Assembly: GCA_001552015.1 (NCBI GenBank)
Contig: CP010514.1
Coordinates: 30,001 to 62,000 of the forward strand
Direction of reading: 5' to 3'
From: Candidatus Nanopusillus acidilobi
Lineage (GTDB): Archaea; Nanobdellota; Nanobdellia; Nanobdellales; Nanobdellaceae
DNA length: 32,000 nt
Below are positions 1 through 27,217 of this stretch, piece after piece. Numbering within the stretch: position 1 is the first letter of the stretch; each line of letters begins with the position of its first letter. A program made the position numbers and the translations under genes. The notes beneath the pieces are model-generated. The model saw nothing but the letters and a program-made list of their open reading frames with translations, did no database searches and was not told where the DNA came from.

Positions 1-360
1 TATAATAATCTTGATATAGAAAATTTTGAATATGAATATACTGTTTGTCCAAGATGTAAAGGTTTAATTAAAAAAGCAAATCTAATTTTACAAATAAGAG
101 GATATAATAAAAATATTGAAGATGAAATATTAAAAATAGCAAAGAAAAATAGAGATATAATAAAAAAGGTAAATGAAATAAATGAAAATGATCTTGATAT
201 ATATTTATATGTAGGAAAAAATAGGATAAAGAGCTATTATAATATATTAAAAAAATATGGGGAAGTAAAATTAAGTAAAAAATTGTTTAGCTATGATAAA
301 AAAAGTGGAAATAAAAAATATATTGTAACAATATTACTAAGGGGTGAAGAAGATACATGA
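1..360 (+). CDS. 3' end of a gene truncated by the window edge; hypothetical protein with a C-x2-C zinc-ribbon-like motif
   Basis: Frame 1 is open from base 1 to TGA 358-360 (...EYTVCPRCKGLIKK...YIVTILLRGEEDT*). It is absent from the ORF track because it has no start codon in the window. Family not recognised. Confidence 0.5.
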   Translation, partial: YNNLDIENFEYEYTVCPRCKGLIKKANLILQIRGYNKNIEDEILKIAKKNRDIIKKVNEINENDLDIYLYVGKNRIKSYYNILKKYGEVKLSKKLFSYDKKSGNKKYIVTILLRGEEDT

Positions 361-536
361 AAAACCTTATAAAAGTTTACATAATAATAAAGGGTATGGA
401 CTGGGAAGACCTAAAAAGGAGGATAAAGGAACTGAGAATGAAAGAAGAGGATGAAGGAGAAGGTTGGGAAGAATATGAAGAAGAGGATTGGGATTTGGAA
501 GAAGATTGGGACGAGGAAGGGGAAGATGAATGGTAA
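357..536 (+). CDS. small (59 aa) protein with an extremely acidic, Trp-rich C-terminal tail
   Basis: Hand translation: MKNLIKVYIIIKGMDWEDLKRRIKELRMKEEDEGEGWEEYEEEDWDLEEDWDEEGEDEW*. The ATG at 357 overlaps the upstream TGA (ATGA). It falls below the ORF-track size cutoff. Codon periodicity and purine-rich acidic coding are evident. Confidence 0.45.
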   Translation: MKNLIKVYIIIKGMDWEDLKRRIKELRMKEEDEGEGWEEYEEEDWDLEEDWDEEGEDEW

Positions 537-983: not shown

Positions 984-1172
984 TTAAATATTGTAATTGT
1001 TTGATATATTGCCAAATGTTTGATTTAAAGCATTATTTGATGTATTTGATAAATTTTGTTGAGATGATGAGATTTTCAAAGTTTGAGGGACTACAAAAAT
1101 TATAACTACTACTAAAACAATAAGTCCAATTATTAAAAAAAATACAAAATCTATAGCATCAGATCTTTTCAT
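984..1172 (-). CDS. 62-aa mini pilin-like protein (N-terminal hydrophobic helix plus N/S/T-rich tail)
   Basis: MKRSDAIDFVFFLIIGLIVLVVVIIFVV followed by a tail with the sequons NLS, NTS, NQT and NIS. It has the same length and architecture as the ORF at 8063-8251. Confidence 0.6.
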   Translation of the reverse strand: MKRSDAIDFVFFLIIGLIVLVVVIIFVVPQTLKISSSQQNLSNTSNNALNQTFGNISNNYNI

Positions 1173-1210
1173 ATTTTAATTTATTATATAAAAGATGAAC
1201 TTATAAAAGA

Positions 1211-1576
1211 TTAGGATGGGCACACCAACTCATCACCCATGGTTGTGCAAGTTATAGTTGTAGTCGTAGTTATAATCGTAGACGTAAATTCTCCATTCTC
1301 CCCCACTCCATAAGACGTAGTTGTAGTCGTAGTTGTAATTATAGTTGTAGAATATTGGGATGAGCTAGATCCGCCGTTTACTTGATTTGATATATTATTT
1401 ATTGCTTGACCTGTTTGATTTGTTTGATTCAATGTTGGATTTAATACATTTTGTGTTCCAGTTATTCCCTTAGAAAATGTACCTGTAAAGAATAATACTA
1501 CAACTATTAAGGCAACAAGTGCTATTATCAATATAATAATTGTATTAATTGCTATGGATTGGCCTTTCTTTACCAT
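1211..1576 (-). CDS. class III signal peptide (type IV prepilin-like) protein with poly-Thr tracts
   Basis: The N-terminus MVKKGQSIAINTIIILIIALVALIVVVLFF fits the archaeal prepilin pattern K-G-Q-S followed by a hydrophobic helix. The body is N/Q/T-rich with two TIITTTTT tracts and a C-terminal Cys pair (CTTMGDELVC). Confidence 0.7.
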   Translation of the reverse strand: MVKKGQSIAINTIIILIIALVALIVVVLFFTGTFSKGITGTQNVLNPTLNQTNQTGQAINNISNQVNGGSSSSQYSTTIITTTTTTTSYGVGENGEFTSTIITTTTTITCTTMGDELVCPS

Positions 1577-7016: not shown

Positions 7017-7539
7017 TTATATTATTTAAAATAATATCCCTTAATTTTATCATATCATCCTTTTTAATTAATGGTAATTCAATTGTTAAACTTACACTTT
7101 TATTTAATAAAAATGTATGAGTATATATTTTTATTGTATATAATTTTCTAATTTTCTCATATAAACTCTGATATATTTCTATATTATTTATATATGAATT
7201 TTCTATTGATCTTATATTTTCATTTTCAATCAATATTAATCTTTTATTTGTAAATATTATATAATAGTTCTTTGCCTTTTCATAATATTTTAATGCAATA
7301 TAATATACAATTGAAGTAATAAAAAATAATAAAAATAAGGATAATATATTTGGGTTATAATATTCTGAAATTAAGAATGTAACAAAATATATAGAAAAAA
7401 TTAAATATAATGGAAATGTATATCTTAATGAATATATTGATGGATTATAATTAATAGTAAATAATGGATCTTCATTTTCCAATTTTATTTTTTCATTTAT
7501 TTTTTCTTTTTCAAATGATAAATAATAATCTCCTTTCAT
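6982..7539 (-). CDS. membrane protein with a bacterial-type PH (YdbS/YdbT, bPH_2-like) domain
   Basis: 185 aa. Two central TM helices followed by YYIIFTNKRLILIENENI, resembling the bPH_2 signature. Convergent 35-nt overlap with rpl21e. Confidence 0.55.
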   Translation of the reverse strand: MKGDYYLSFEKEKINEKIKLENEDPLFTINYNPSIYSLRYTFPLYLIFSIYFVTFLISEYYNPNILSLFLLFFITSIVYYIALKYYEKAKNYYIIFTNKRLILIENENIRSIENSYINNIEIYQSLYEKIRKLYTIKIYTHTFLLNKSVSLTIELPLIKKDDMIKLRDIILNNITKKIEQEKPVP

Positions 7540-7589
7540 TTTTGTTTATTTATTCAAAAATTTATAAATATTGTTTTTTATTTATTTTT

Positions 7590-8030
7590 ATGGATCTAAA
7601 ATTTGATAAAAGGTTATTATTATTAATAATATTCTCAATAATAGGTTTAATTATATATATTTATTTATCATATGTTGTTTTAATAAATAGCTCATTACCA
7701 TTATTTTGTTCTATTAATAATACCCCAATAAATTGTGAAAATGTAATAAGAAGTCCATATTCAAAATTGTTTGGAATACCTTTAGAAATATATGTAATTT
7801 TATATTTCATAATTGATATATTTTTGATATTATTATTGTATAAGAAAATGTTTAAGATAATTTATAATTTATTATATAGATTAATTGGTATTATATTTGT
7901 AATATTTTCATTATATGTAATGTTATTTTTAATTCATTCAATATGTTTATATTGTTCTACAGTGGATGGAATATTGATTATCAATTTTGGGATAATTTTA
8001 TATTATTATAAAAAGAAAGTTTTCGAATAA
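7590..8030 (+). CDS. VKOR-family (vitamin K epoxide reductase-like) membrane disulfide oxidoreductase
   Basis: I moved the start to ATG 7590, because the track start at 7464 overlaps the minus-strand gene. 146 aa with about 4 TM helices. Loop Cys pair CSINNTPINC, the SPYSKLFGIP motif, and CLYC (CXXC) in the last TM region. Confidence 0.75.
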   Translation: MDLKFDKRLLLLIIFSIIGLIIYIYLSYVVLINSSLPLFCSINNTPINCENVIRSPYSKLFGIPLEIYVILYFIIDIFLILLLYKKMFKIIYNLLYRLIGIIFVIFSLYVMLFLIHSICLYCSTVDGILIINFGIILYYYKKKVFE

Positions 8031-8062
8031 AATTTATAATTGATAAGATTTTTTAGATATAT

Positions 8063-8251
8063 ATGAAAAATAGTATAGCAATAGATATGGTAATAATTAT
8101 AGTTATTGCATTAGTTATTTTAGTTTTGGCAGTTTTGTTTGGATATAAAATATTTTTAGGTGGAAATAATACAGCAAATGAGTCAATTAATTTTCTTAAT
8201 AACAGCTTTAATAATATTACAAATCAATCAATTTCAAATATAATAAAATGA
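8063..8251 (+). CDS. 62-aa mini pilin-like protein
   Basis: MKNSIAIDMVIIIVIALVILVLAVLF followed by a tail with the sequons NES, NNS, NIT and NQS. ATGA overlap with the 847-aa gene. Paralogous in architecture to 984-1172. Confidence 0.6.
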   Translation: MKNSIAIDMVIIIVIALVILVLAVLFGYKIFLGGNNTANESINFLNNSFNNITNQSISNIIK

Positions 8252-10791
8252 GGGGGAGTATTTTTGATGATCTTATGCTATTTATAGGATATTATCTTCC
8301 AATATTTATTATAGCTCTTGCAGGAGTTATATTTATTTTAACTTCAATATTTAAATTCTATCATATTAATAATCCATCTCAATATTATATTTCAATAATG
8401 AACCAAAATAGTCAAAACAATCAAAATAGTAATCAGAATACAATAAATTCAACAATTATGGTAAATATATATTATCAGAATGGATTTAATATATATTATG
8501 TTCCATCATTTATTGAAAATCTAAGTAATTGGAGTATATTTTATAATATTACAAATACTTATACTAGTAGTAGTAGTAATTTATCACAAATAAATCCTCC
8601 GAATATAACAAATACTAATTCAACATCATTTGATATAAGTTCATCATATAATGTTGAATTAGAATCTATAATTAATCTATCAAATAATACTTTTGAAGGA
8701 AATAATGTTATATATACGTATAATGAAACTACATATGAATGTAAAATTGTTGGAAATAATGTTTTAGAATATCAGCCAGGTAGTTTTGCATATTTTTGTA
8801 TATTATGTGAACCAGTGTCAGGAAATAGTCCAAGTATACAATATTACTATTTAAGTGAACCTGAATATATAAATATAACTCCAGTAATATCTTTATTAGG
8901 AAATTCTTATCCAAATACTCAATATTATGATTATACAGTAAATAATGTAGAAATAGTTAATGGAACATATTTAGCTATACCTTTATCAAATAGTAATGGA
9001 GGATATTCTATGGAAGATTTCCAAAATATATTAGTTACAATTGGTCCTCCTTTAAGTAATTATATAAATAATACTCCATATGTTGGGGATAATGTAGTAT
9101 TTTTAGTTAATTATGATGGTAAATATTATGCATTACCTTCATGGTATGCTGGTCAAGATAGTGAGGGAAATTATTATTTCTTTATTAATCTATTAAATAT
9201 TCCTTCATTATATAATAGTAATTTTGGTTGTAATATTATATCAATATTTGTTGGATTTAGTAATGAAAGTCTATTACCATATTTAAATGGAACAATTGGT
9301 GGTGATCCTTATGCATTAAATTCATCCAATCCGGCTTCAGCAGTTGAATATGATAATGGATTAAATGTATTTCCAATATATGTTAACTTTTATCCATATA
9401 ATGGAACAAAAGGTGAAAGAATGGAAGAAACATCAGCAGGAGTATGTAATAATGGATATGCATGTTTCGAAAATATTCAATTTAATAATGTATTACCTAC
9501 GTATAATAATATAAGTATTTATGTAAATGGAACAAATATTATTCCACAAATTATAGCAACTGGAGAATTAGAAGGATTAATGATGGATAATGGAACATGG
9601 CAAGGATCATATGCATTAATTACATCAAATGTTTTACAAAAGACTTTTAATCAATTATCTCAATCACAAAATGGATTGGGATTACAAACATTTGCATATT
9701 TTTCTGGAATACCCTGGGAAGATACTCCAGGTACTGTTACAACTCCATATGTTTCAGCTGCTATAGTATTATCATATATTAGTTATAATAATCAATTCCA
9801 AGCTGATACAGTAAATGATTATAATTATAAAGATTCAACAACGAACTGTATACATGGTCTTAGAGGATGTGCTCCTGTAGGAAATCAAAATATAGGAATA
9901 AATGTTGGGGGTGATACATATTTACCACTTAATTTCCCAATATTTATGTATGAATATGCATGGGCATTTGGTGGTCCAGGTCCAGGCTATTCTTCAGGAT
10001 ATTATGTTGGAATATTGCAATATAGTGATACATTAGGATTAGGATATTTCTTAACTACTCAATATACAAATAATCTAAATCCAAGTGGATATTATGATTA
10101 TTATTATTCAGGATCTGGTTGGAGTTGTGGTACAACTTGTTATCTCACTGGTGGTCTAACTGGTTGGAATCTCAATTATTATTTCTTAGAAGATAATAAT
10201 GGAAAGATATACGGACAAAATGGAGGATCAAATTATTTTCCCTTTATGCCACCAGATCAACAAAATAATGATTTTTATTCTCAATATGGTGTATTTTGGC
10301 TGTATAATTGGTTCCAGCCAGAAAATAATAATATGAATATATTCTTCTTAATGAATGGAAACATTTTCAATTATTCTCTTGCTTCAGAACCATATAGTTG
10401 GAATGGGGGAAGTGCGTATGCAATACCACCAAAACCACCTGGAAGAATTTTTTGCTCTGTTGAAGATGATATATGTGAACCTTTATTTGTACAATCATAC
10501 ATAAATGCATATAATACAGCGTTTAATCAATCCTATAATCTTCAAAATGCTTTATATAAATATAGCTATTTTGCTCCTAGTAGTATAAATAATAACACTT
10601 TTATACCTGGAACTTTTGGATATCATGAAGAATATAATATTATTATAAGTCACTTGCAAGATGATTCAAGCGTATATTCAGGAACCCCCTATTTATTTGT
10701 TTCAGCAGGTTCGGGAGGAGGTTCGGGTTTTATGTATCTAAACTGGATAATTGTAACGTATGGAGTTCCTTATGTTATAAGCATATCTTAA
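8248..10791 (+). CDS. large (847 aa) exported, sequon-rich surface protein with an N-terminal hydrophobic anchor/prepilin-like segment
   Basis: MRGSIFDDLMLFIGYYLPIFIIALAGVIFILTSIF, then a Q/N linker. I hand-count 23 N-X-S/T sequons and 12 Cys. This long uninterrupted ORF stands in AT-rich DNA where stop codons are frequent by chance. Confidence 0.75.
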   Translation: MRGSIFDDLMLFIGYYLPIFIIALAGVIFILTSIFKFYHINNPSQYYISIMNQNSQNNQNSNQNTINSTIMVNIYYQNGFNIYYVPSFIENLSNWSIFYNITNTYTSSSSNLSQINPPNITNTNSTSFDISSSYNVELESIINLSNNTFEGNNVIYTYNETTYECKIVGNNVLEYQPGSFAYFCILCEPVSGNSPSIQYYYLSEPEYINITPVISLLGNSYPNTQYYDYTVNNVEIVNGTYLAIPLSNSNGGYSMEDFQNILVTIGPPLSNYINNTPYVGDNVVFLVNYDGKYYALPSWYAGQDSEGNYYFFINLLNIPSLYNSNFGCNIISIFVGFSNESLLPYLNGTIGGDPYALNSSNPASAVEYDNGLNVFPIYVNFYPYNGTKGERMEETSAGVCNNGYACFENIQFNNVLPTYNNISIYVNGTNIIPQIIATGELEGLMMDNGTWQGSYALITSNVLQKTFNQLSQSQNGLGLQTFAYFSGIPWEDTPGTVTTPYVSAAIVLSYISYNNQFQADTVNDYNYKDSTTNCIHGLRGCAPVGNQNIGINVGGDTYLPLNFPIFMYEYAWAFGGPGPGYSSGYYVGILQYSDTLGLGYFLTTQYTNNLNPSGYYDYYYSGSGWSCGTTCYLTGGLTGWNLNYYFLEDNNGKIYGQNGGSNYFPFMPPDQQNNDFYSQYGVFWLYNWFQPENNNMNIFFLMNGNIFNYSLASEPYSWNGGSAYAIPPKPPGRIFCSVEDDICEPLFVQSYINAYNTAFNQSYNLQNALYKYSYFAPSSINNNTFIPGTFGYHEEYNIIISHLQDDSSVYSGTPYLFVSAGSGGGSGFMYLNWIIVTYGVPYVISIS

Positions 10792-13193: not shown

Positions 13194-14402
13194 ATGAAAT
13201 CAATAAGCGATAGTGTAATAGAACTTATTATTGTAATTATTATAATAATATTTGTAATATTAGTTTTCTTTAATGTATTAAAAGGTCTTAGTTATGCAGG
13301 TAGACCAGAAGCAAAGTTTGGATATGCATTATCAGGAAGTATAAGTTTTATGGTAAATCCAATAGCACAGGGAATATCCGATGCTTCAACAATTGCAAAT
13401 GATGTATTAATAGGAATTATTGCTGCTACGGCTGTTGCTGGTATAGTTAAAGGAGTTTATGAAAATTATAATGCGAATATAGAATATTTAGAGAGTATAG
13501 GATTTAGTGAAGAAGATATACAGAATATGGATTTGAAAGATCTGTTATTTGAGGATCTTCAGAATGGAGGATCTGCATTAGGTCCTATTGCGAAAGATGT
13601 TATAAATTCATATAGAACAGTATTTTTAAATCCTTTAGGTGGTGGTTTATTATTTGGAACTATTGGTTTAGATTTATCATCTGAATCTTTAAATAATTTA
13701 GCTCATGCATTACAAGGACCAATTTTATATTATTTAGTTCCAGAAGGTTTAGTAGTTGTGAATTTGAGTAATATAGGTGGTTCCCAGATAAATGAAATGC
13801 TTAATGATTTAAATCAATCATATGTAAATAATATAGAACAACAGCAATATTGTAGTAATCCAACATCATCAGCATGTCAAAATTTATATGCAACATATTT
13901 AGTTGCAAAATATTTATTCTATACATATGGAGAAACACTGGGACAAAGTGTAACTATAGCAGGAAATCATAATGAATATGTATTATTATTATTTGACTAT
14001 AATAGTACATATAATGTTACATTAAATGATGTTTTATGTATGCTGGAAATGATGAAATATTATAATTATATTCCATTGGAAGTTATGTATGGAGATAAGG
14101 TAATAGCAAATAGTACTAATAATATCGCCTGTCAGATTTTAAGCAATGTAAATAGTAGTTTAATGTCAGAAAATCCACAAGATTCAAATAATGTATATAA
14201 TAAACTATTAGTAAACTCTTTTGAAGTAAATAACAGCAGTGGTAAACCTTATCTATTAAGTTCAACTAAAAACAACCCTTCACCAAATCAAGTTACAATT
14301 ATTCCAGGTAATCTAACATTACCAAATGGTATAATAATAGAATATACATATGAGGGAGGAAATAGGGTAATTCTATTAACATCAATTTCTGGGGGAAGTT
14401 AG
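13194..14402 (+). CDS. exported/membrane protein with a prepilin-like N-terminus and a GYALS/Ala-rich-helix module, function unknown
   Basis: I set the start at ATG 13194 (MKSISDSVIELIIVIIIIIFVILVFF) rather than the track's TTG at 13143. 402 aa with 4 Cys. The first gene of a tightly packed nine-gene plus-strand array. Confidence 0.7.
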   Translation: MKSISDSVIELIIVIIIIIFVILVFFNVLKGLSYAGRPEAKFGYALSGSISFMVNPIAQGISDASTIANDVLIGIIAATAVAGIVKGVYENYNANIEYLESIGFSEEDIQNMDLKDLLFEDLQNGGSALGPIAKDVINSYRTVFLNPLGGGLLFGTIGLDLSSESLNNLAHALQGPILYYLVPEGLVVVNLSNIGGSQINEMLNDLNQSYVNNIEQQQYCSNPTSSACQNLYATYLVAKYLFYTYGETLGQSVTIAGNHNEYVLLLFDYNSTYNVTLNDVLCMLEMMKYYNYIPLEVMYGDKVIANSTNNIACQILSNVNSSLMSENPQDSNNVYNKLLVNSFEVNNSSGKPYLLSSTKNNPSPNQVTIIPGNLTLPNGIIIEYTYEGGNRVILLTSISGGS

Positions 14403-14432
14403 TTTATAAATTACAAAGTTTTTAGATTTATA

Positions 14433-14579
14433 ATGGAAACTGGAGAACTTTTAAAGATAATCCTAGCATTAATATTTATTGTACTAATATTAATATTTGT
14501 TTTTGTCATATTGGGACCAAAAATAGGGCTAAATATAAATATATTTGCAAACTATCAATTAATAGGAGGAAATGGATAA
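14433..14579 (+). CDS. 48-aa mini pilin-like protein (not in ORF track)
   Basis: Hand translation: METGELLKIILALIFIVLILIFVFVILGPKIGLNINIFANYQLIGGNG*. Its stop overlaps the next start (ATGGATAA). Confidence 0.5.
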   Translation: METGELLKIILALIFIVLILIFVFVILGPKIGLNINIFANYQLIGGNG

Positions 14580-14754
14580 AAGAACTCAATTAGATACATT
14601 TTTAATAGCAATAATATTATTTATAGTTGCTTTAGTATTGTTAGTAATATTTATGTACTTTTATTTCAAAGGTGGAGTAAATTTATTTAATAGTATAAAT
14701 CAAACAAATGGCACAAATGTTGTAAATAGCATAAATAGTAATAACTATGGCTGA
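14572..14754 (+). CDS. 60-aa mini pilin-like protein
   Basis: MDKRTQLDTFLIAIILFIVALVLLVIFMYFYF followed by a tail with the sequons NQT and NGT. It overlaps both neighbours by 8 nt. Confidence 0.6.
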   Translation: MDKRTQLDTFLIAIILFIVALVLLVIFMYFYFKGGVNLFNSINQTNGTNVVNSINSNNYG

Positions 14755-14905
14755 TAATGCAATAAATTTTTTAATATTTTTAATTATTGCACTAGTAATA
14801 ATAATTTTAGCAATATTATTTTATTATTATATAGTAAATAATTCTATGCAGGTAAATGTAACAAGTGTTGGGTATAAAGTATTAAATCAATCTGGATTAG
14901 GATAA
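14747..14905 (+). CDS. 52-aa mini pilin-like protein (not in ORF track)
   Basis: Hand translation: MADNAINFLIFLIIALVIIILAILFYYYIVNNSMQVNVTSVGYKVLNQSGLG*. The start lies inside the previous gene (ATGGCTGA), and the stop is 1 nt before the next ATG. Confidence 0.5.
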   Translation: MADNAINFLIFLIIALVIIILAILFYYYIVNNSMQVNVTSVGYKVLNQSGLG

Positions 14906-14906
14906 T

Positions 14907-15839
14907 ATGAAAGGGGATTCTCTTATTAAAATAATTTTTGATATAATAGTATTAATTGTATTGGTAGTTTTAATATATTATATTATTACGGCACTTATTG
15001 GATTATCTATGGGGAAAGATTTTGAATATATCGGATATTTAAATTCAATTGCTGATGCTATAAATAATAATGCTACTGGACAGATATTTATAGATAATTA
15101 TGATTATAATTATGTTTTTGTATTGACATATAACAATGGATGGTATTTACAATTATATCATTGTTTTCCTCCGAACGTTGTTGTAGGTCTTTTATCTGTT
15201 AAATTAGTATATTGGAATGTTTCTACAACAGATAATGGAAATACTATCATATTTGCACCAGCATTAGCATTTTGTAAATTAATAAAACAAAGATCATTAG
15301 ATAATGTAAATGAAATAAATATAAACATACAAGGATTAAATGATAATGCTGGTTTATTAGCATATTCTGAGAATAGTAATTTAAATGTTTTTGACCTTTT
15401 TATAAATGTAATAATAAATACTGTTAGTAATCTTCAAATACCATCATCAATGGTTCTTACTATAATAAATGATACAAATATAACATGTAATAGTAATAGA
15501 TGTACGTTTATGTCAACAATTAATGAAAATAGTAATACATATGAAGAAAGTGGTAATATATATTGTTCTCCATATTCAAATATGAATTCAAATAGTTTAA
15601 CATATAATCCATCGGTATGTGTTGAATTATCAGGATTTCCACAAAATTCTCAAGTACAGCTTAGTAATTTAGAAGGTGAAATAGTAGATGCTGCTACATT
15701 AGGAAGTCTCTTTCAAGGGGTAGATTTTCCAATATTATTATTAGCAGGTTCTTTACCACCAACAGTAATGTATATAGATGTAAATAGTAATGATGGAACG
15801 GCAGATATTAATATATATATAGGAGAAACTGTTTCATAG
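14907..15839 (+). CDS. 310-aa exported protein with a class III-like N-terminus
   Basis: MKGDSLIKIIFDIIVLIVLVVLIYYII fits K-G-D-S-L-I followed by a helix. 6 Cys. N-rich body, no recognised domain. Confidence 0.7.
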   Translation: MKGDSLIKIIFDIIVLIVLVVLIYYIITALIGLSMGKDFEYIGYLNSIADAINNNATGQIFIDNYDYNYVFVLTYNNGWYLQLYHCFPPNVVVGLLSVKLVYWNVSTTDNGNTIIFAPALAFCKLIKQRSLDNVNEININIQGLNDNAGLLAYSENSNLNVFDLFINVIINTVSNLQIPSSMVLTIINDTNITCNSNRCTFMSTINENSNTYEESGNIYCSPYSNMNSNSLTYNPSVCVELSGFPQNSQVQLSNLEGEIVDAATLGSLFQGVDFPILLLAGSLPPTVMYIDVNSNDGTADINIYIGETVS

Positions 15840-15840
15840 T

Positions 15841-16956
15841 ATGGATGATGAATTATTAGATGCAATAATAGCATCAATATTTTTAATAATTGTATCGTTA
15901 ATAGGAATATATTTTCCATATATTGTTACAAGAATATTTGGTACTCATAATCCTTATTTAATATTAGAAGTTGCTGGTTTTATTACATATTCAACATCAG
16001 AACCTGGAAATATGAGTGCAGCATTTTTAGTAACTAATGGACCAACCTTTTTCTATGAATTTAGGATAATTCCTCCAATACAATCATCCGCTCTGTTTAT
16101 TCCTTTATATAATAATAATGATTTTTTAGTTAGTATTGGAGTATGCTATGTACGTGATTTATGGCAACAACTTGCAGATGATGCACTAAATTCTTTTATA
16201 GCTGAAGGACTTTCATATTTACCAGGATTAAAGAGTTTTGGTTCAACAAAATCTATAATAGAAGTTTTAAATGGCATATCTAAAAACATACCAGCAATTG
16301 CTAAACAAGCATTAATAAATTTTGGCATTGCATATACTTCATATACAGAACAATCTGCATATTTGCAATATTCATATGGAAATCATAATATATGGGGAGA
16401 TATTTTTAATGCATTGCAATCTTCAGTAGGGCCTTCTTTATGGGCTGCTGGAGAAGCTACTATAATGCAAGTTGTAGATATGGTATTAGATGAAACTTTA
16501 CCACCTCCAGCCGATTTTGTAGCTGGTTTTGCATTTAATATGGCATTTTCCTCAGCAATCACTTTAATACAATATTGGCAAGCTACAACAAATCCATATA
16601 CATATTGTTATTATAATCAATTTATAAGTCAAGGTAAAACTTTTTTTGGTCTACTTCCAAATGGTAAATATACAGTATATCAACCATATTTAACATTATC
16701 AATATATTATAATCCAAATTTCACATTTTATAATGGATGTTATGGTAATGATAATGATTATTATTTATGTAATACAAGCTTTACATATATCTATAATTCA
16801 ACTGAAGAATCAGAAGATAATATATTTAAATTAGATTTAGGAAATATAAATAATGAGGGTCAAGAAGAATTTCCAGAGTTTATTGTTATATCAAAGGTTG
16901 GTGTAGAATATGGAGGCCCATATCTAAATATATCAGTATTATCTTCTGAAACATGA
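15841..16956 (+). CDS. 371-aa exported/membrane protein, function unknown
   Basis: MDDELLDAIIASIFLIIVSLIGIYFPYIV at the N-terminus. The central part is less AT-biased (A/G/L-rich). 4 Cys. There is a 1-nt spacer from the upstream gene and an ATGA overlap downstream. Confidence 0.7.
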   Translation: MDDELLDAIIASIFLIIVSLIGIYFPYIVTRIFGTHNPYLILEVAGFITYSTSEPGNMSAAFLVTNGPTFFYEFRIIPPIQSSALFIPLYNNNDFLVSIGVCYVRDLWQQLADDALNSFIAEGLSYLPGLKSFGSTKSIIEVLNGISKNIPAIAKQALINFGIAYTSYTEQSAYLQYSYGNHNIWGDIFNALQSSVGPSLWAAGEATIMQVVDMVLDETLPPPADFVAGFAFNMAFSSAITLIQYWQATTNPYTYCYYNQFISQGKTFFGLLPNGKYTVYQPYLTLSIYYNPNFTFYNGCYGNDNDYYLCNTSFTYIYNSTEESEDNIFKLDLGNINNEGQEEFPEFIVISKVGVEYGGPYLNISVLSSET

Positions 16957-17789
16957 GATCATTATCCTTAAAAGATATAATTGAATATATAGCTGCTGCA
17001 GTTGTTATAATATTTACATTTTTTATTGTAGCAATATTATATGCGTTTTTTAATATTGAATCATATTCAGAATATACTTATCAGCAATTTACTAATAGTT
17101 TATTGATTGATAGATTAAATTATTGTTTATATGAAAATACAGGAAATCCATTATTATTATTTTATGCTCCAAATTTGCAGATTATTAATGAATATAATAA
17201 TACATATCAACAATGTTTCATGAATGTATCTGGAACACTTTATTATTATATTAATCAAACAAATCAATCAGATCAAGTTAACTATACATATCTAAATTTT
17301 TCTTATGATGATTATATATATTTCTTTTTCTATGATATTAACAATATAAATAACTCATATTCTTATGATCCATATAACCTTAGTTTTGAAAATGATATAA
17401 ATGTAAATCCAAATTATGTTGCATATAATATTAATAATGTTAGTTATACATATGATGGAAGTTTAGCATCTTTAGATCAGTTTTTAATCAATTATTTCTA
17501 TAATTATAGTTTATATATATTTAATGAAACAGAAAATGCATATGAAAACTATCAAATTATAAATAATACTGCAATATATTATGCTTATGCAGATGGGGAT
17601 TATTATAATGAAATATATATACAACCAATAGCTTCATATTATATTACTTTACCAGAATATGATAGTGGAGAACCTGTAATAGTATCTTTATATGGAGTAG
17701 GAAATCTTTATATGAATGGAATATATAATGAAACATGTAATACGATTGCCGGAGGCCAAATAAATATATCTTCTTGTCAAATTAATTAA
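16953..17789 (+). CDS. 278-aa exported N/Y-rich protein, function unknown
   Basis: MRSLSLKDIIEYIAAAVVIIFTFFIVAILYAFF at the N-terminus. 4 Cys and many sequons. Confidence 0.7.
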   Translation: MRSLSLKDIIEYIAAAVVIIFTFFIVAILYAFFNIESYSEYTYQQFTNSLLIDRLNYCLYENTGNPLLLFYAPNLQIINEYNNTYQQCFMNVSGTLYYYINQTNQSDQVNYTYLNFSYDDYIYFFFYDINNINNSYSYDPYNLSFENDINVNPNYVAYNINNVSYTYDGSLASLDQFLINYFYNYSLYIFNETENAYENYQIINNTAIYYAYADGDYYNEIYIQPIASYYITLPEYDSGEPVIVSLYGVGNLYMNGIYNETCNTIAGGQINISSCQIN

Positions 17790-17795
17790 AGTACA

Positions 17796-18293
17796 ATGAA
17801 AATACAAATTGGTTTCTTTTTATCATTTATGGTTGCAATATTAATTATTATAGTAGTATTCTTTATATTTATTTTTGGTATATTTTCATATGGAAATCCA
17901 ACACTAAATAATATTGCAGATTTAAATACTGTTGGTATTGAATATAAATCTGCAAATGGTTTTTTAGATTCTTTAATTTACTTTGATAATGTAACTGTTC
18001 CTGTAATAGATATATATGCAGGGTTTTATAATGATACAGAATTGGATAATTATATAATAAATGAATTGGTAAATGATGAATTATATTATTTAAATAATTC
18101 AGCTACAATTTTATCGTTCTATTTAAATAATTATACAGTTATTGGAGTATGCCCAAATAAAGAATATATACCTTATAATGTTTATTTAGATGGTAACTTT
18201 TATACATTCTATGTTTGTCCGCCAACAGTATTATATAATTTTTATGTAAATTACAGTTATAATATATATAGTTCATCTAATCAATTAACTTAA
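17796..18293 (+). CDS. 165-aa exported protein, function unknown
   Basis: MKIQIGFFLSFMVAILIIIVVFFIFIFGIF at the N-terminus. 2 Cys (GVCPNK, YVCPPT). Confidence 0.65.
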   Translation: MKIQIGFFLSFMVAILIIIVVFFIFIFGIFSYGNPTLNNIADLNTVGIEYKSANGFLDSLIYFDNVTVPVIDIYAGFYNDTELDNYIINELVNDELYYLNNSATILSFYLNNYTVIGVCPNKEYIPYNVYLDGNFYTFYVCPPTVLYNFYVNYSYNIYSSSNQLT

Positions 18294-18324
18294 AGTTAAT
18301 AATTTTAAAATTCATTGATTTTAT

Positions 18325-19830
18325 ATGAAAACATCTTTAGCACCATTAGCATTATTAATAGGAGTAATAATTTTAGTTCTCTTTGGTATATATTATTTAA
18401 ATTCTCAGATGGAACTTTCAACTCAATCTTTAAAATATTTAAGTGAAGATTATATTGCATATCAGGGATTTTTATATTTATTATTTGTTTATATTCCATT
18501 TGATATTAGATATAATTTAATAAATAATCTTTTAACAAATATTTTTTACCCTGTTTATAATCAGGGTTATGTATTTGAAAATAGTATTCCATATTATTAT
18601 TATTACTCTTGTGAAATTCCTTTTTTATTTAAATACAATATAAGTAACTCTATAATTTATCCTGTTTATTCTATTGGAAATAATTATTATATAAATTATT
18701 CATTATGTGTTCCAATAATTCCTTTAGATAATTTAAGTGATATAAATAATAATATTTTTTATAGTGTTGCAAATACTGTAGAGAAAAATTTAAACGAAGA
18801 AATTGGAATTTTAAATTTTAAATATGCAAATTTTTCATATCAGGATTTTTATTATGACAGTTCTATTAATAGTTTTGTATTATCAAATCCTCAATATTCT
18901 TTCTTTGTATTAAGCAAATATGAAAGAAATTTATCTTTTCCTCAATTAAATAATCGAATAGATTATTCAGTATACCCATTTTTATTATATTATAATGAAT
19001 TAATTGATTATTTATATAATCAAACATTTCAATTCATATATTATAATTTAACAAATCAATCAGATTATATATATTTATATCAAAATTCGTATTCTAATGA
19101 AACAGTTGGTGATAATTTATACTTAGATTTGTCGTTTAATAATCCCTATTATTATGTTCTGGATTTGTATACATCTCAACCTATACCATCAGAATATCCA
19201 GGCATTACAAATGTAACAATTGTAATACCATGTGAATCTGTTGGACAGATCGTAAATAATCAATGTATTATAAATGATACATATAGTGAATATATGAATG
19301 AATGCTTATATTCAAATATAAATAATATATTGTTAAATTATCAATCATATAATATAAATAAAGAGAATATATTCAATGAATATTGGTATAACATAACTAG
19401 TGTAAATATTAGTAATGAAGAAAATGTAGAAGTTAATAGAAGTTTTGTTGAAAATATATTAGAAAATTATACATATTATACTGACGGATATTATCCAGCT
19501 TTAATACCTGTAGATCTTCAAATAAATTATAGTAATGTTAGTTGTTCTATATATAATGAAACATTACAATTTGGACCATATAAATATTATTCTAATTGTT
19601 CATCAGCACAAGACTATTTATCGAATTTATGTATAATTGAACACACATGCTATGCAGTGAAAGCACACGGATATTCAGGAGTTTATTTTTTTAATGCTAT
19701 ATGTCCTGTTCCAGAAACAAGTATAAATAATCAATTTACATACAATTACTATTTATATGAATTTGTAGAAATAAATAATGAAACAATAAATGATTATTGC
19801 GATAATTTATATTGTTATATAATAGGATAA
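18325..19830 (+). CDS. 501-aa exported Cys-rich N/Y-rich protein, function unknown
   Basis: MKTSLAPLALLIGVIILVLFGIYY at the N-terminus. 12 Cys, clustered in the C-terminal half. The last gene of the array. Confidence 0.7.
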   Translation: MKTSLAPLALLIGVIILVLFGIYYLNSQMELSTQSLKYLSEDYIAYQGFLYLLFVYIPFDIRYNLINNLLTNIFYPVYNQGYVFENSIPYYYYYSCEIPFLFKYNISNSIIYPVYSIGNNYYINYSLCVPIIPLDNLSDINNNIFYSVANTVEKNLNEEIGILNFKYANFSYQDFYYDSSINSFVLSNPQYSFFVLSKYERNLSFPQLNNRIDYSVYPFLLYYNELIDYLYNQTFQFIYYNLTNQSDYIYLYQNSYSNETVGDNLYLDLSFNNPYYYVLDLYTSQPIPSEYPGITNVTIVIPCESVGQIVNNQCIINDTYSEYMNECLYSNINNILLNYQSYNINKENIFNEYWYNITSVNISNEENVEVNRSFVENILENYTYYTDGYYPALIPVDLQINYSNVSCSIYNETLQFGPYKYYSNCSSAQDYLSNLCIIEHTCYAVKAHGYSGVYFFNAICPVPETSINNQFTYNYYLYEFVEINNETINDYCDNLYCYIIG

Positions 19831-27133: not shown

Positions 27134-27217
27134 GCGGCGGTGCCCGAGAGGTCAAAGGGGGTCGGTTTAGGTCCGATTGGATAAGATCCGCCAGGGGTTC
27201 AAATCCCCTCCGCCGCA
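27134..27217 (+). tRNA. tRNA-Leu (anticodon TAG), type II with long variable arm
   Basis: Acceptor GCGGCGG/CCGCCGC; anticodon arm GTCGG-TTTAGGT-CCGAT; variable arm GGAT-AAG-ATCC; T arm AGGGG-TTCAAAT-CCCCT; discriminator A. Confidence 0.9.

Follow-up and report, generated by a model that had tools for sequence, protein, structure and literature searches.

The window analyzed here, a 32-kb stretch of the Candidatus Nanopusillus acidilobi genome, harbors an operon of nine genes for cell-surface proteins that is present in Nanopusillus, Nanobsidianus, Nanobdella, and their relatives (table 1). All nine proteins share a very short polar start followed by a hydrophobic helix of about 20 residues. 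Three small genes of this operon, named m48, m60, and m52 after the lengths of their products in amino acids, are arranged as the original prediction had proposed: the three plus-strand ORFs were confirmed in their extent and in their occupation of frames 0, 1, and 2, consecutive genes share 8-nt start/stop overlaps (ATGGATAA at 14572-14579 and ATGGCTGA at 14747-14754), and a spacing of 1 nt separates the m52 stop, which ends at 14905, from the d310 start at 14907.

Table 1. Genes and sequence features of the nine-gene operon and of the paralogous microproteins in the 32-kb window.
Feature	Position	Strand	Description
s62b	984..1172	-	62-aa paralog; N-terminus MKRS|DAIDF; adjoins p121
p121	1211-1576	-	N-terminus MVKKG|QSIAIN
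s62a	8063..8251	+	62-aa paralog MKNSIAID...; 4-nt overlap (ATGA) with the 847-aa gene 8248-10791
up419	13194..14402	+	First cluster gene; 402 aa from ATG 13194; N-terminus MKS|ISDSVIE
Intergenic gap	14403..14432	+	30 nt; TATA-like box TTTATAAA at 14403-14410
m48	14433..14579	+	48-aa single-helix microprotein; acidic N-terminus METGELL; without prepilin-type site
GGAGG	14565..14569	+	Shine-Dalgarno-like motif; 2 nt before the m60 ATG
m60	14572..14754	+	60-aa single-helix microprotein; basic leader MDKRT|Q
m52	14747..14905	+	52-aa single-helix microprotein; N-terminus MADNAINFLIFLIIA
d310	14907..15839	+	310 aa; N-terminus MKG|DSLIKIIFDII; invariant acidic residue within the helix
d371	15841..16956	+	371 aa; acidic N-terminus MDDELLDAIIASIF; four invariant Cys
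d278	16953..17789	+	278 aa; N-terminus M[RK][SG]|LSLKDIIEY; prepilin-like; Asp at +5
d165	17796..18293	+	165 aa; N-terminus MKIQIG|FFLS
d501	18325..19830	+	501 aa; last cluster gene; N-terminal helix; 20 sequons; 12 Cys

The window holds 60 ATG-initiated ORFs of at least 48 aa, compared with 16.6 ± 4.3 in first-order Markov simulations of its 32 kb, and a same-strand tiled triplet occurred in 0 of 300 simulated 32-kb sequences of the same kind. The reading of the trio as chance ORFs was rejected, and so was a viral or mobile origin, as housekeeping genes flank the locus in conserved synteny in every genome. By the evidence of their sequences, m48, m60, and m52 are genuine, translationally coupled genes. 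The TATA-like box in the gap preceding m48 has its center about 26 nt ahead of the m48 start codon; the gap is near-invariant in nine Nanopusillus/Nanobsidianus species, where it reads TTTATAAATT[AG]CAAAGTTTTTAGATTTATA although synonymous sites vary, and in distant lineages a box of the TTATAAA/TTTTAAA type stands at the same distance. Taking the usual archaeal TATA-to-start spacing as a guide to promoter function, this gap is probably an internal promoter, from which a leaderless transcript would start at m48. The GGAGG motif, encoded by the last m48 codons (GGNG) and present in the Nanopusillus/Nanobsidianus lineages only, is a putative ribosome-binding site for m60.

All relatives that were fetched, about 16 lineages including Nanobsidianus, Nanobdella aerobiophila (MJ1_0043-0045), and strain YN1, have the trio in the same place within the operon; the sample consisted of 13 species-level genome loci and two to three more distant metagenomic lineages, with the trio intact. 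The counterparts of m60 are Nst1_041, MJ1_0044, and YN1_3860. Between the window and distant lineages, amino acid identity amounted to 52-61% for m48, 53-70% for m60, and 61-75% for m52, as against 24-40% for the flanking large genes. Likewise, dN/dS across the species-level loci, which were retrieved through d371, was 0.25 for m48, 0.20 for m60, and 0.26 for m52 compared with 0.52-0.64 for the neighbors, and the m48 differences were distributed over the three codon positions as 237/16/224, with second positions strongly depleted. The strain-level dN/dS of m60 was set aside as circular because the respective loci had been retrieved by exact identity to m60. The overlaps themselves vary by lineage (-8/-8, -8/-11, -11/-4, and -14/-4), yet coupling persists. 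The reading-frame conservation on which the original prediction depended was borne out: frames, lengths, and start/stop overlaps are kept, with low dN/dS, across a divergence of roughly genus to family level. In one clade, m60 and m52 are fused in frame into a two-helix hairpin of about 112 aa, inside whose linker the basic KRS|D-type site persists (the bar marks the boundary between positions -1 and +1), and this fusion implies a functional link between the two proteins. Together, the comparative data identify the trio as syntenic, under purifying selection, and the best-conserved part of the nine-gene operon. The published N. acidilobi annotation misses two of the three genes, which serves as a warning for annotation, as they are absent from it though the trio comprises the best-conserved genes of the locus.

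Each microprotein contains one strongly hydrophobic 19-residue window (Kyte-Doolittle 3.4-3.9) starting at residues 8-10, and a hydrophobic helix of about 20 residues directly following a very short N-terminal segment was found in m48, m60, and m52 alike; each trio product is, by prediction, a single-pass membrane microprotein. The proposed design of one helix plus a polar tail was sustained for every product, except that the m48 tail is only weakly polar and carries no sequon. The N-X-S/T sequons expected in two of the tails are indeed there, with counts of 0 in m48, 2 in m60, and 3 in m52. The m60 tail exhibits the conserved motif FYF[KH]GG.NLF.S, and its sequon N-G-[TS] is kept in 13 genome loci, with N-I-S at this place in the more distant locus L023; the m52 tail combines conserved N-[VLA]-T and N-x-[ST] sequons with a GY..LN motif. 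In both tails, the sequons are retained even where residues differ. The m48 protein is intact in 15 of 15 lineages with a length of 42-48 aa and has the tail motif GP[KN][ILV]G[LWY]N. Four of ten m48 orthologs produced a weak, sub-threshold match to Pfam DUF7554 (best E 8e-5). Among the Pfam and NCBIfam matches of the microproteins and their neighbors, the one to this family of unknown function was the sole recurrent match, and it stayed below the gathering score. An exhaustive profile search with m60 found relatives in 8 representative clusters among 1.84 billion, and because all 8 belong to the clade that carries the operon, there are no distant annotated m60 relatives to lean on.

Several of the larger operon proteins bear classic archaeal prepilin (class III) leaders. 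The upstream ORF described at 419 aa has its true start at the conserved ATG 13194 and not at TTG 13143; the orthologs of the resulting up419 protein begin with MKKG|IS, MKKG|VS, MKRA|VS, or MRKKG|Q, the prepilin-type dipeptide [KRDE][GAS] occurs in 14 of 15 lineages, and no Pfam match was obtained for up419. In d310, the [KRDE][GAS] site occurs in 10 of 15 lineages. A lookup of the exact 310-aa d310 protein returned no record. This gene is the fastest evolving of the operon, with dN/dS of 1.06 among strains and 0.64 among species. Fast evolution characterizes the large operon subunits in general, in keeping with what proteins in contact with the host would show. For d371, the AF2 model was of moderate quality (pLDDT 73, pTM 0.67) and not pilin-like, and a comparison of this model with the PDB yielded no fold match (best E 0.07, TM 0.2 or less); the predicted fold would accordingly be novel. 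The d165 model was unusable (pLDDT 46). In the proteome published for N. acidilobi (Supplementary Data 1, PMC4935971), none of the operon proteins was detected, a weak form of evidence because small, hydrophobic, and glycosylated proteins are hard to detect.

The same design had been reported to recur at 62 aa in two further places of the window. Both paralogs, s62a and s62b, were recovered; s62b lies on the minus strand, and the overlap of s62a with its neighbor is 4 nt. The pair formed by s62a and the 847-aa gene is conserved in Nst1, Nanobdella, and L028. A prepilin-type leader could be recognized by eye in p121 and s62b, of which a strict regular expression flagged s62b only. When the microproteins were aligned by hhalign with the small class-III-like paralog family (leaders MVKKG|Q and MKRS|D; s62a was included in this alignment, A9), m52 matched in register from the leader with a probability of 93.8% and m60 matched leader to leader with 88.7%, scores that are inflated by composition on transmembrane helices.

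The archaeal prepilin rule comprises G, A, or S at -1, a charged residue at -2, and a site located before the hydrophobic domain (PMC4371748). As to the prepilin-like processing that the original prediction had considered, 0 of the 3 window proteins fit this published rule, their N-termini reading K-R-T|Q in m60, M-A|D in m52, and E-T-G|E in m48. Across lineages, the picture is graded: m60 conforms in 5 of 14 (KRS|D, KRS|Q, KRS|E, and HKG|Q, with L021 judged by eye), the window copy and those of eight close species (K-[KR]-T|Q) failing because of the T at -1; m52 conforms in 9 of 14 (MEA|D, MKS|D, and MRRS|E), the window M-A|D being without a charged residue at -2; and m48 conforms in 0 of 15, with acidic N-termini of the forms ME.GELL, MNELL, and MD.NTLL. 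The curated models sought included Pfam Pilin_N, Class_IIIsignal, and Arch_flagellin and the TIGR archaeal flagellin N-terminal domain. Among the matches listed for the microproteins with E values of up to 10, none was to a pilin, archaellin, or class-III model of Pfam or NCBIfam, nor was any such family listed at E up to 0.01 for 26 operon and paralog proteins from four lineages; the permissive Pfam and NCBIfam scans, which also covered the neighbors of the microproteins, returned composition-driven, sub-threshold matches only. The m60 profile, the m52 profile, and the fused protein gave no match to PDB sequences. Neither the 32-kb window nor the loci extended by +/-10 kb contain a gene for a PilB/ArlI-like ATPase, a PilC/TadC-like protein, or a prepilin peptidase; the literature reports ATPase, platform, and peptidase genes elsewhere in these genomes, and two type IV pilus systems plus an archaellum have been reported for Nanoarchaeota (PMC6142677).

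On the strength of gene order and conservation, the trio is the conserved core of a nine-gene cell-surface operon. We tentatively propose that m60 and m52 are "headless" type-IV-pilin-like subunits of a surface assembly with m48 as an uncleaved partner, an interpretation to which we give slightly less than an even chance. Both m60 and m52 would span the membrane with an inner N-terminus and an outer C-terminus; their leaders of 2-6 residues may be clipped by the prepilin/prearchaellin peptidase of the cell, and their short tails would be N-glycosylated outside the cell. Their helices would pack with the pilin-like N-terminal helices of the large, fast-evolving glycoproteins (up419, d310, d278, and others), thereby forming or priming a surface assembly that resembles a type IV filament or a pseudopilus. 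Being without a prepilin-type site, m48 would more likely remain in the membrane as the uncleaved partner. Here, we infer cleavage, glycosylation, filament assembly, and the partner ATPase alike.

The failure of the window copies, and of m48 in all lineages, to follow the prepilin rule, the lack of matches between pilin profiles and any of the microproteins, and the absence of an ATPase or platform gene nearby also accord with another arrangement, in which the microproteins, uncleaved and bitopic, serve as scaffold, anchor, or chaperone within a non-filamentous surface complex of glycoproteins from the same operon, holding or positioning the large N-terminally anchored proteins without peptidase, assembly ATPase, or fiber. 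We regard it as a real possibility, albeit one on the doubtful side. The d371 predicted fold, which is not pilin-like, points the same way, as does the far higher conservation of the microproteins relative to the ectodomains, which is expected of a membrane core binding conserved helices. The fused m60-m52 protein cannot place both sequon tails outside and hence fits poorly with a simple scheme of two independent pilins; its two-helix form is more readily reconciled with an integral membrane subunit than with a pilin that can be extracted. Uncleaved anchors would, however, leave unexplained the canonical prepilin-like leaders on up419, d310, and d278 (MKKG|IS, MKRA|VS, and MRS|LSLKD), the prepilin-like leaders of m60 and m52 orthologs (KRS|D, KG|Q, and MKS|D), the retention of the KRS|D-type site within the fusion linker, and the in-register similarity to small paralogs bearing KKG|Q leaders.

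The hairpin formed by the fusion bears as well on whether the microproteins could be conjugation-type (VirB2/TraA/CedA1-like) tube subunits, perhaps of the intercellular filament or tube of 6.6-8 nm that cryo-ET has revealed. Tubes of 6.6-8.2 nm do run from symbiont to host (PMC11420986; PMC11104419; bioRxiv 2026.06.04.730037), and the paralog s62b gives weak TraA-pilin matches (E 0.03-0.05). These matches are nevertheless sub-threshold, no other TraA/VirB2-type family was among the weak Pfam, NCBIfam, and PDB matches listed, none of the TraA or TrbC/VirB2-type was among those listed for the fused m60-m52 protein, most lineages have separate single-helix proteins, and a VirB4/CedB-type gene was found in none of the loci, all of which make tube subunits a very improbable identity. 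Still more remote is the view that the trio represents upstream or leader ORFs tuning the 310-aa gene by translation, or that the region is an untranslated leader. The location immediately 5' of d310, the 8-nt overlaps characteristic of coupling, the two ORFs without annotation in the published N. acidilobi genome, and the trio's non-detection in the N. acidilobi proteome would all be compatible with it, but the amino acid sequences including the tails are 52-75% conserved versus 24-40% for the neighbors, dN/dS lies at 0.20-0.26 with second codon positions depleted of changes, tail motifs and sequons are conserved, paralogs exist elsewhere in the genome, and one clade has an in-frame fusion. 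Both versions are effectively refuted by these comparative data (purifying selection on the peptides, sequons, paralogs, and fusion).

The original prediction had named Geobacter PilA-N, at 61 aa mature, as the shortest known pilin, which is wrong, as the Methanococcus maripaludis pilins MMP1685, MMP0528, MMP0903, and MMP1283 (EpdD) measure 54-63 aa after processing and carry N-glycosylation sequons, and MMP1685 (EpdE), the major pilin of this organism, is a demonstrated glycoprotein (PMC3875500). Because glycosylated mini-pilins of 54-63 residues are known in Methanococcus, short length alone is not novel. The EppA-dependent mini-pilins of Methanococcus resemble the trio in several respects, having precursors of 67-76 aa that consist essentially of one hydrophobic helix and a short sequon-bearing tail, occurring as several different small pilin-like genes per genome, and being encoded away from the assembly ATPase gene (PMC3875500; PMC4371748). 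They differ in their strict K-G|Q leader, Glu at +5, and DUF361 domain, which the window proteins are without. The EppA-type combination of Gly at -1, Gln at +1, and Glu at +5 (PMC3875500) does not occur in the trio, m60 reading T|QLDTF and m52 and m48 lacking all three residues, and among the m60 orthologs that of Nanobdella alone reads HKG|Q. Furthermore, m48, with 42-48 aa and no leader, is shorter than any Methanococcus mini-pilin, and the trio differs from the mini-pilins in that three unrelated microproteins are tiled within an operon of large subunits.

In functional terms, the proposed headless-pilin assembly would find its closest parallels in the initiation complexes of minor pilins and in the small pilin-like components of the system that assembles the Sulfolobus bindosome. 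Bacterial minor-pilin and pseudopilin operons such as fimU-pilVWXY1E and gspGHIJK, whose products probably assemble by helix packing into a complex for initiation or at the tip, likewise consist of consecutive coupled genes with prepilin-like N-terminal helices and large adhesin-like members; their subunits differ in that all have a globular head and Gly at -1, most also Glu at +5, and the operons lie in or close to loci with PilB/PilC/PilD homologs. Neither the Pfam and NCBIfam scans nor the d371 structure search revealed a sequence or fold relationship to bacterial minor pilins or pseudopilins. In the Sulfolobus bindosome system, the small pilin-like BasABC act with BasEF, and the bas genes adjoin ATPase and membrane-platform genes. 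The likeness lies in small class-III-signal proteins helping large class-III-signal surface proteins to assemble, the outcome not being a long pilus, whereas the operon studied here has nine proteins and no ATPase, and no homology was detected. Bindosome subunits are processed by PibD (PMC4371748). No match to the Flp family was among the weak Pfam matches listed for the trio at E up to 10. The Flp/Tad (type IVc) pilins are bacterial, helix-only proteins of about 45-60 mature residues, shorter still than the M. maripaludis mini-pilins, and are cleaved by TadV at G|xxxxEY; their small helix-only format resembles that of the trio, from which the TadV motif is absent.

The attachment organelle of these symbionts, in which a 6.6-8 nm intercellular filament or tube bridges the cytoplasm of symbiont and host, also has a cone and a portal. 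Outside the clade to which the cultivated bearers of this organelle belong, the operon was not found; among these bearers, Nanobdella and YN1 contributed loci to the comparison, and the related strain YN4 shows the organelle as well. The genomes of the Nanobdellales, which are obligate ectosymbionts, measure about 0.6-0.77 Mb, and the retention of nine syntenic surface genes in genomes of this size implies an important function. That the operon with its trio core encodes structural or assembly components of the Nanobdellales attachment organelle, or else the pilins long missing for an orphan type IV pilus ATPase of nanoarchaea, is an unlikely proposal as it stands; the operon nonetheless offers a concrete, conserved candidate set for the builders of the attachment organelle or surface filament and for the pilins of that ATPase. 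The microproteins are its most constrained members, and the set is testable in four existing co-cultures. If they are pilins that undergo processing, m48 and m52 would rank with the shortest archaeal filament subunits known; otherwise, the microproteins would define a new family of membrane microproteins organizing a surface complex.

The mini-ORFs m48, m60 and m52 lie where the original prediction placed them on the + strand, overlapping by ATGGATAA (m48/m60) and ATGGCTGA (m60/m52), with 1 nt between the m52 stop and the 310-aa gene d310, and no ORF of at least 40 aa was found on the opposite strand of this region. Simulating the window 300 times with a first-order Markov model never produced three same-strand ATG-ORFs of at least 48 aa tiled in this way. 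An exact look-up of m60 returned six strain-level contigs, in which 48-, 60- and 52-aa genes are called in an identical arrangement; because this set is biased by m60 identity, species-level loci were fetched independently through homologs of the 371-aa neighbor, d371. All three ORFs were open, with order and neighbors unchanged, in 13 species-level genomes (several Nanopusillus/Nanobsidianus species, two Nanopusillaceae MAGs, Nanobdella aerobiophila MJ1, and strain YN1), and the trio was also present in a more distant metagenomic lineage, L023. Lengths range across lineages from 42 to 48 (m48), 56 to 64 (m60), and 49 to 62 aa (m52). Nanopusillus/Nanobsidianus show overlaps of -8/-8 or -8/-11, and other lineages have -11 or -14, then -4 (ATGA); translational coupling is maintained though the detail of the overlaps varies. 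Among nine species, dN/dS was 0.25, 0.20, and 0.26 for m48, m60, and m52 versus 0.54, 0.64, and 0.52 for the large neighbors; changes at second codon positions of the microproteins were strongly depleted (m48 differences by codon position, 237/16/224). The conservation and dN/dS checks proposed with the original prediction are thereby in favor of the three ORFs being genes. The conserved open frames, the low dN/dS, and an in-frame fusion of two of the genes rule out chance ORFs, and these comparative data likewise exclude an untranslated leader of the 310-aa gene or a purely regulatory one. We hold with high confidence that the three are genuine microprotein genes, translationally coupled and under strong constraint. 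The operon whose conserved core they make up encodes surface proteins and is known solely from this nanoarchaeal clade.

Nanopusillus-type nanoarchaea are obligate ectosymbionts of Sulfolobales- or Acidilobus-type hosts, and the window is AT-rich and archaeal (G+C about 19-31%), encoding fibrillarin, Nop5, class V FBPase, thermopsin, and several tRNAs. Homologs of the encoded proteins are assigned to Candidatus Nanopusillus acidilobi (93% identity) and Nanobsidianus stetteri, which marks the genome as a Nanopusillus-type one. The trio belongs to a nine-gene same-strand cluster whose synteny is kept in all genomes compared. All nine products begin with a very short polar segment followed by one hydrophobic helix, the large ones carry many sequons and cysteines, and none matched Pfam or NCBIfam. 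The mechanical ORF for up419, the 419-aa upstream gene, begins at TTG 13143; the ATG equivalent to 13194 (MKSISD...) is the start in all relatives and replaces it. In the published N. acidilobi annotation, the up419 and d310 orthologs (Nps_00225 and Nps_00235) flank a single gene, Nps_00230 (= Nst1_041), and m48 and m52 are therefore missing from it; both are annotated in Nst1, MJ1, YN1, and metagenome gene calls. No product of the operon turned up in the published N. acidilobi proteome, and no description of this operon was found in the cited literature.

Features of the operon and related loci (a slash in a motif marks the candidate cleavage site; identity, window protein versus the four most distant genomes; rule, lineages conforming to the archaeal prepilin rule)
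Feature	Position	Strand	Length	Identity	Rule	Remarks
Cluster (up419, m48, m60, m52, d310, d371, d278, d165, d501)	13194-19830	+				nine genes
up419		+		35-40%	14 of 15	MKKG/IS, MKRA/VS, MRKKG/Q; window MKS/IS
Spacer up419-m48	14403-14432		30 nt			
TATA-like box	14403-14410					TTTATAAA
m48	14433-14579	+	48 aa	52-61%	0 of 15	acidic N-terminus, site absent
m48 tail YQLIGGNG	14556-14579					
m60	14572-14754	+	60 aa	53-70%	5 of 14	KRS/D, KRS/Q, HKG/Q; window K-R-T/Q deviates at -1
m52	14747-14905	+	52 aa	61-75%	9 of 14	MEA/D, MKS/D, MRRS/E; window M-A/D deviates
d310	14907-15839	+	310 aa	24-31%	10 of 15	MKG/D
d371	15841-16956	+	371 aa	31-40%	1 of 14	acidic N-terminus, site absent
d278		+				prepilin-like M[RK][SG]/LSLKD, Asp at +5
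s62a	8063-8251		62 aa			
b847	8248-10791		847 aa			12 Cys, 23 sequons
VKOR, s62a, b847 region	7464-10791					
s62b	984-1172	-	62 aa			
s62b and p121	984-1576	-				
p121 ortholog and sibling	L023:6360-6750		64 and 67 aa			overlapping
m60-m52 fusions	L028:5544-5888; L026:1466-1804; L030:506-847		~112-114 aa			two helices, in frame
tRNA-Leu(TAG)	27134-27217		84 nt			
Acidic ORF	357-536		59 aa			

The gap between up419 and m48 is nearly invariant among nine species, its conservation exceeding that of the flanking coding sequence. It opens with a TATA-like box whose center lies about 26 nt ahead of the m48 start codon and which distant lineages keep at equal distance. Judged against the usual archaeal TATA-to-start spacing, this suggests that the spacer may act as an internal promoter giving a leaderless m48 mRNA. 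The C-terminal extension of m48 is confined to Nanopusillus and Nanobsidianus; there, its final codons (GGNG) supply a GGAGG that stands 2 nt ahead of the m60 start codon, so that a protein tail and a putative ribosome-binding site share nucleotides.

The original prediction took the trio for helix-only pilins. Each product does contain a single helix, very hydrophobic and beginning at residues 8-10, and two of the tails carry sequons as claimed (0, 2, and 3 in m48, m60, and m52). The archaeal prepilin rule asks for G/A/S at -1 and a charged residue at -2, ahead of the hydrophobic domain (PMC4371748); prepilin-type sites occur in some lineages, but the trio of the window itself departs from the rule, and neither the microproteins nor the operon proteins matched pilin or archaellin profiles. 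PDB sequences likewise gave no match, and no ATPase, platform, or peptidase genes were found nearby in the window or related loci. These negatives speak against a pilin system, as do the lack of operon proteins in the N. acidilobi proteome and the d371 model with no known fold. Profile-profile comparison with the small paralog family (including MVKKG/Q and MKRS/D proteins) gave probabilities of 93.8% for m52, 88.7% for m60, and 50% for m48, and such scores are inflated by composition for hydrophobic helices; m52 and m60 align with this family in register from the leader onward. Sequons persist despite residue changes (N-G-[TS] in m60; N-x-T and N-x-[ST] in m52), which argues for extracellular, glycosylated tails of these two proteins. 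A helix-only pilin would not be new, given the glycosylated mini-pilins established in Methanococcus maripaludis (major pilin MMP1685, 74 aa, 62 aa mature; MMP0528, MMP0903, and MMP1283, 54-63 aa mature), whose genes lie far from the ATPase gene (PMC3875500). Like the trio, these are small helix-only proteins, and the comparator chosen originally as the shortest pilin, Geobacter PilA-N (61 aa mature), was the wrong one.

We tentatively consider m60 and m52 to be headless pilin-like subunits and m48 an uncleaved membrane partner, a reading with close to an even chance of being right. The helices of m60 and m52 would join those of the large subunits, which are prepilin-like, in an assembly resembling minor-pilin or bindosome-type ones. 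Its main rival, somewhat doubtful yet a serious possibility, is that the microproteins stay uncleaved and serve as the membrane scaffold of a surface complex that is not a filament. Bearing on both is a more distant clade, found by exhaustive profile search, in which m60-like and m52-like units are fused in one ORF that keeps its operon position and translates under the standard code; for two of the lineages, the called genes run past a TGA at the 3' end. The linker keeps a basic RRMKRS/D or SKSKRS/D site before the second helix, and both halves carry an N-x-S/T sequon. With its KRS/D-type site and a sequon in both tails, the fusion fits neither model: an uncleaved protein with two helices is topologically unable to place both of its tails on the outside.

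Two type IV pilus systems and an archaellum are reported for Nanoarchaeota, as is high non-synonymous diversity of "hypothetical external" proteins with one N-terminal helix (PMC6142677). The dN/dS of d310, the operon's fastest gene (~1.06 among strains, 0.64 among species), fits that diversity; its N-terminal helix has an invariant Asp/Glu (IIF[DE]II). In cultivated relatives, an attachment organelle made up of a cone, a portal, and a filament or tube of 6.6-8 nm has been described, as has a 15-nm appendage (PMC11104419; PMC11420986; bioRxiv 2026.06.04.730037). The moderate-confidence AlphaFold model of d371 (pLDDT 73) runs from an N-terminal helix through a long helical bundle to a C-terminal beta-sandwich; it has no known fold, the PDB yielded nothing of significant structural similarity, and four Cys of the protein are invariant. 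No usable model was obtained for d165.

The window holds further small genes of this kind, in arrangements likewise conserved in related loci. The first, s62a, is coupled to the 847-aa gene b847, directly downstream of a homolog of the disulfide-forming VKOR; this gene order is kept in Nanobsidianus. The second, s62b, exists at the predicted position but on the minus strand, and adjoins p121, which has an N-terminus MVKKG/QSIAIN... and a long poly-Thr tail; the two make up another pair of small genes with prepilin-like products. The L023 ortholog of p121 and its sibling (MKKKS/ISLSLE and MVRVKKS/VSLTME) resemble classical archaeal mini-pilins more closely than m48, m60, and m52 do. Elsewhere, the tRNA-Leu(TAG) was called by ARAGORN and is absent from the Rfam gathering-threshold scan list, and in the 59-aa ORF the C-terminal half is rich in Trp and extremely acidic (EEDEGEGWEEYEEEDWDLEEDWDEEGEDEW).
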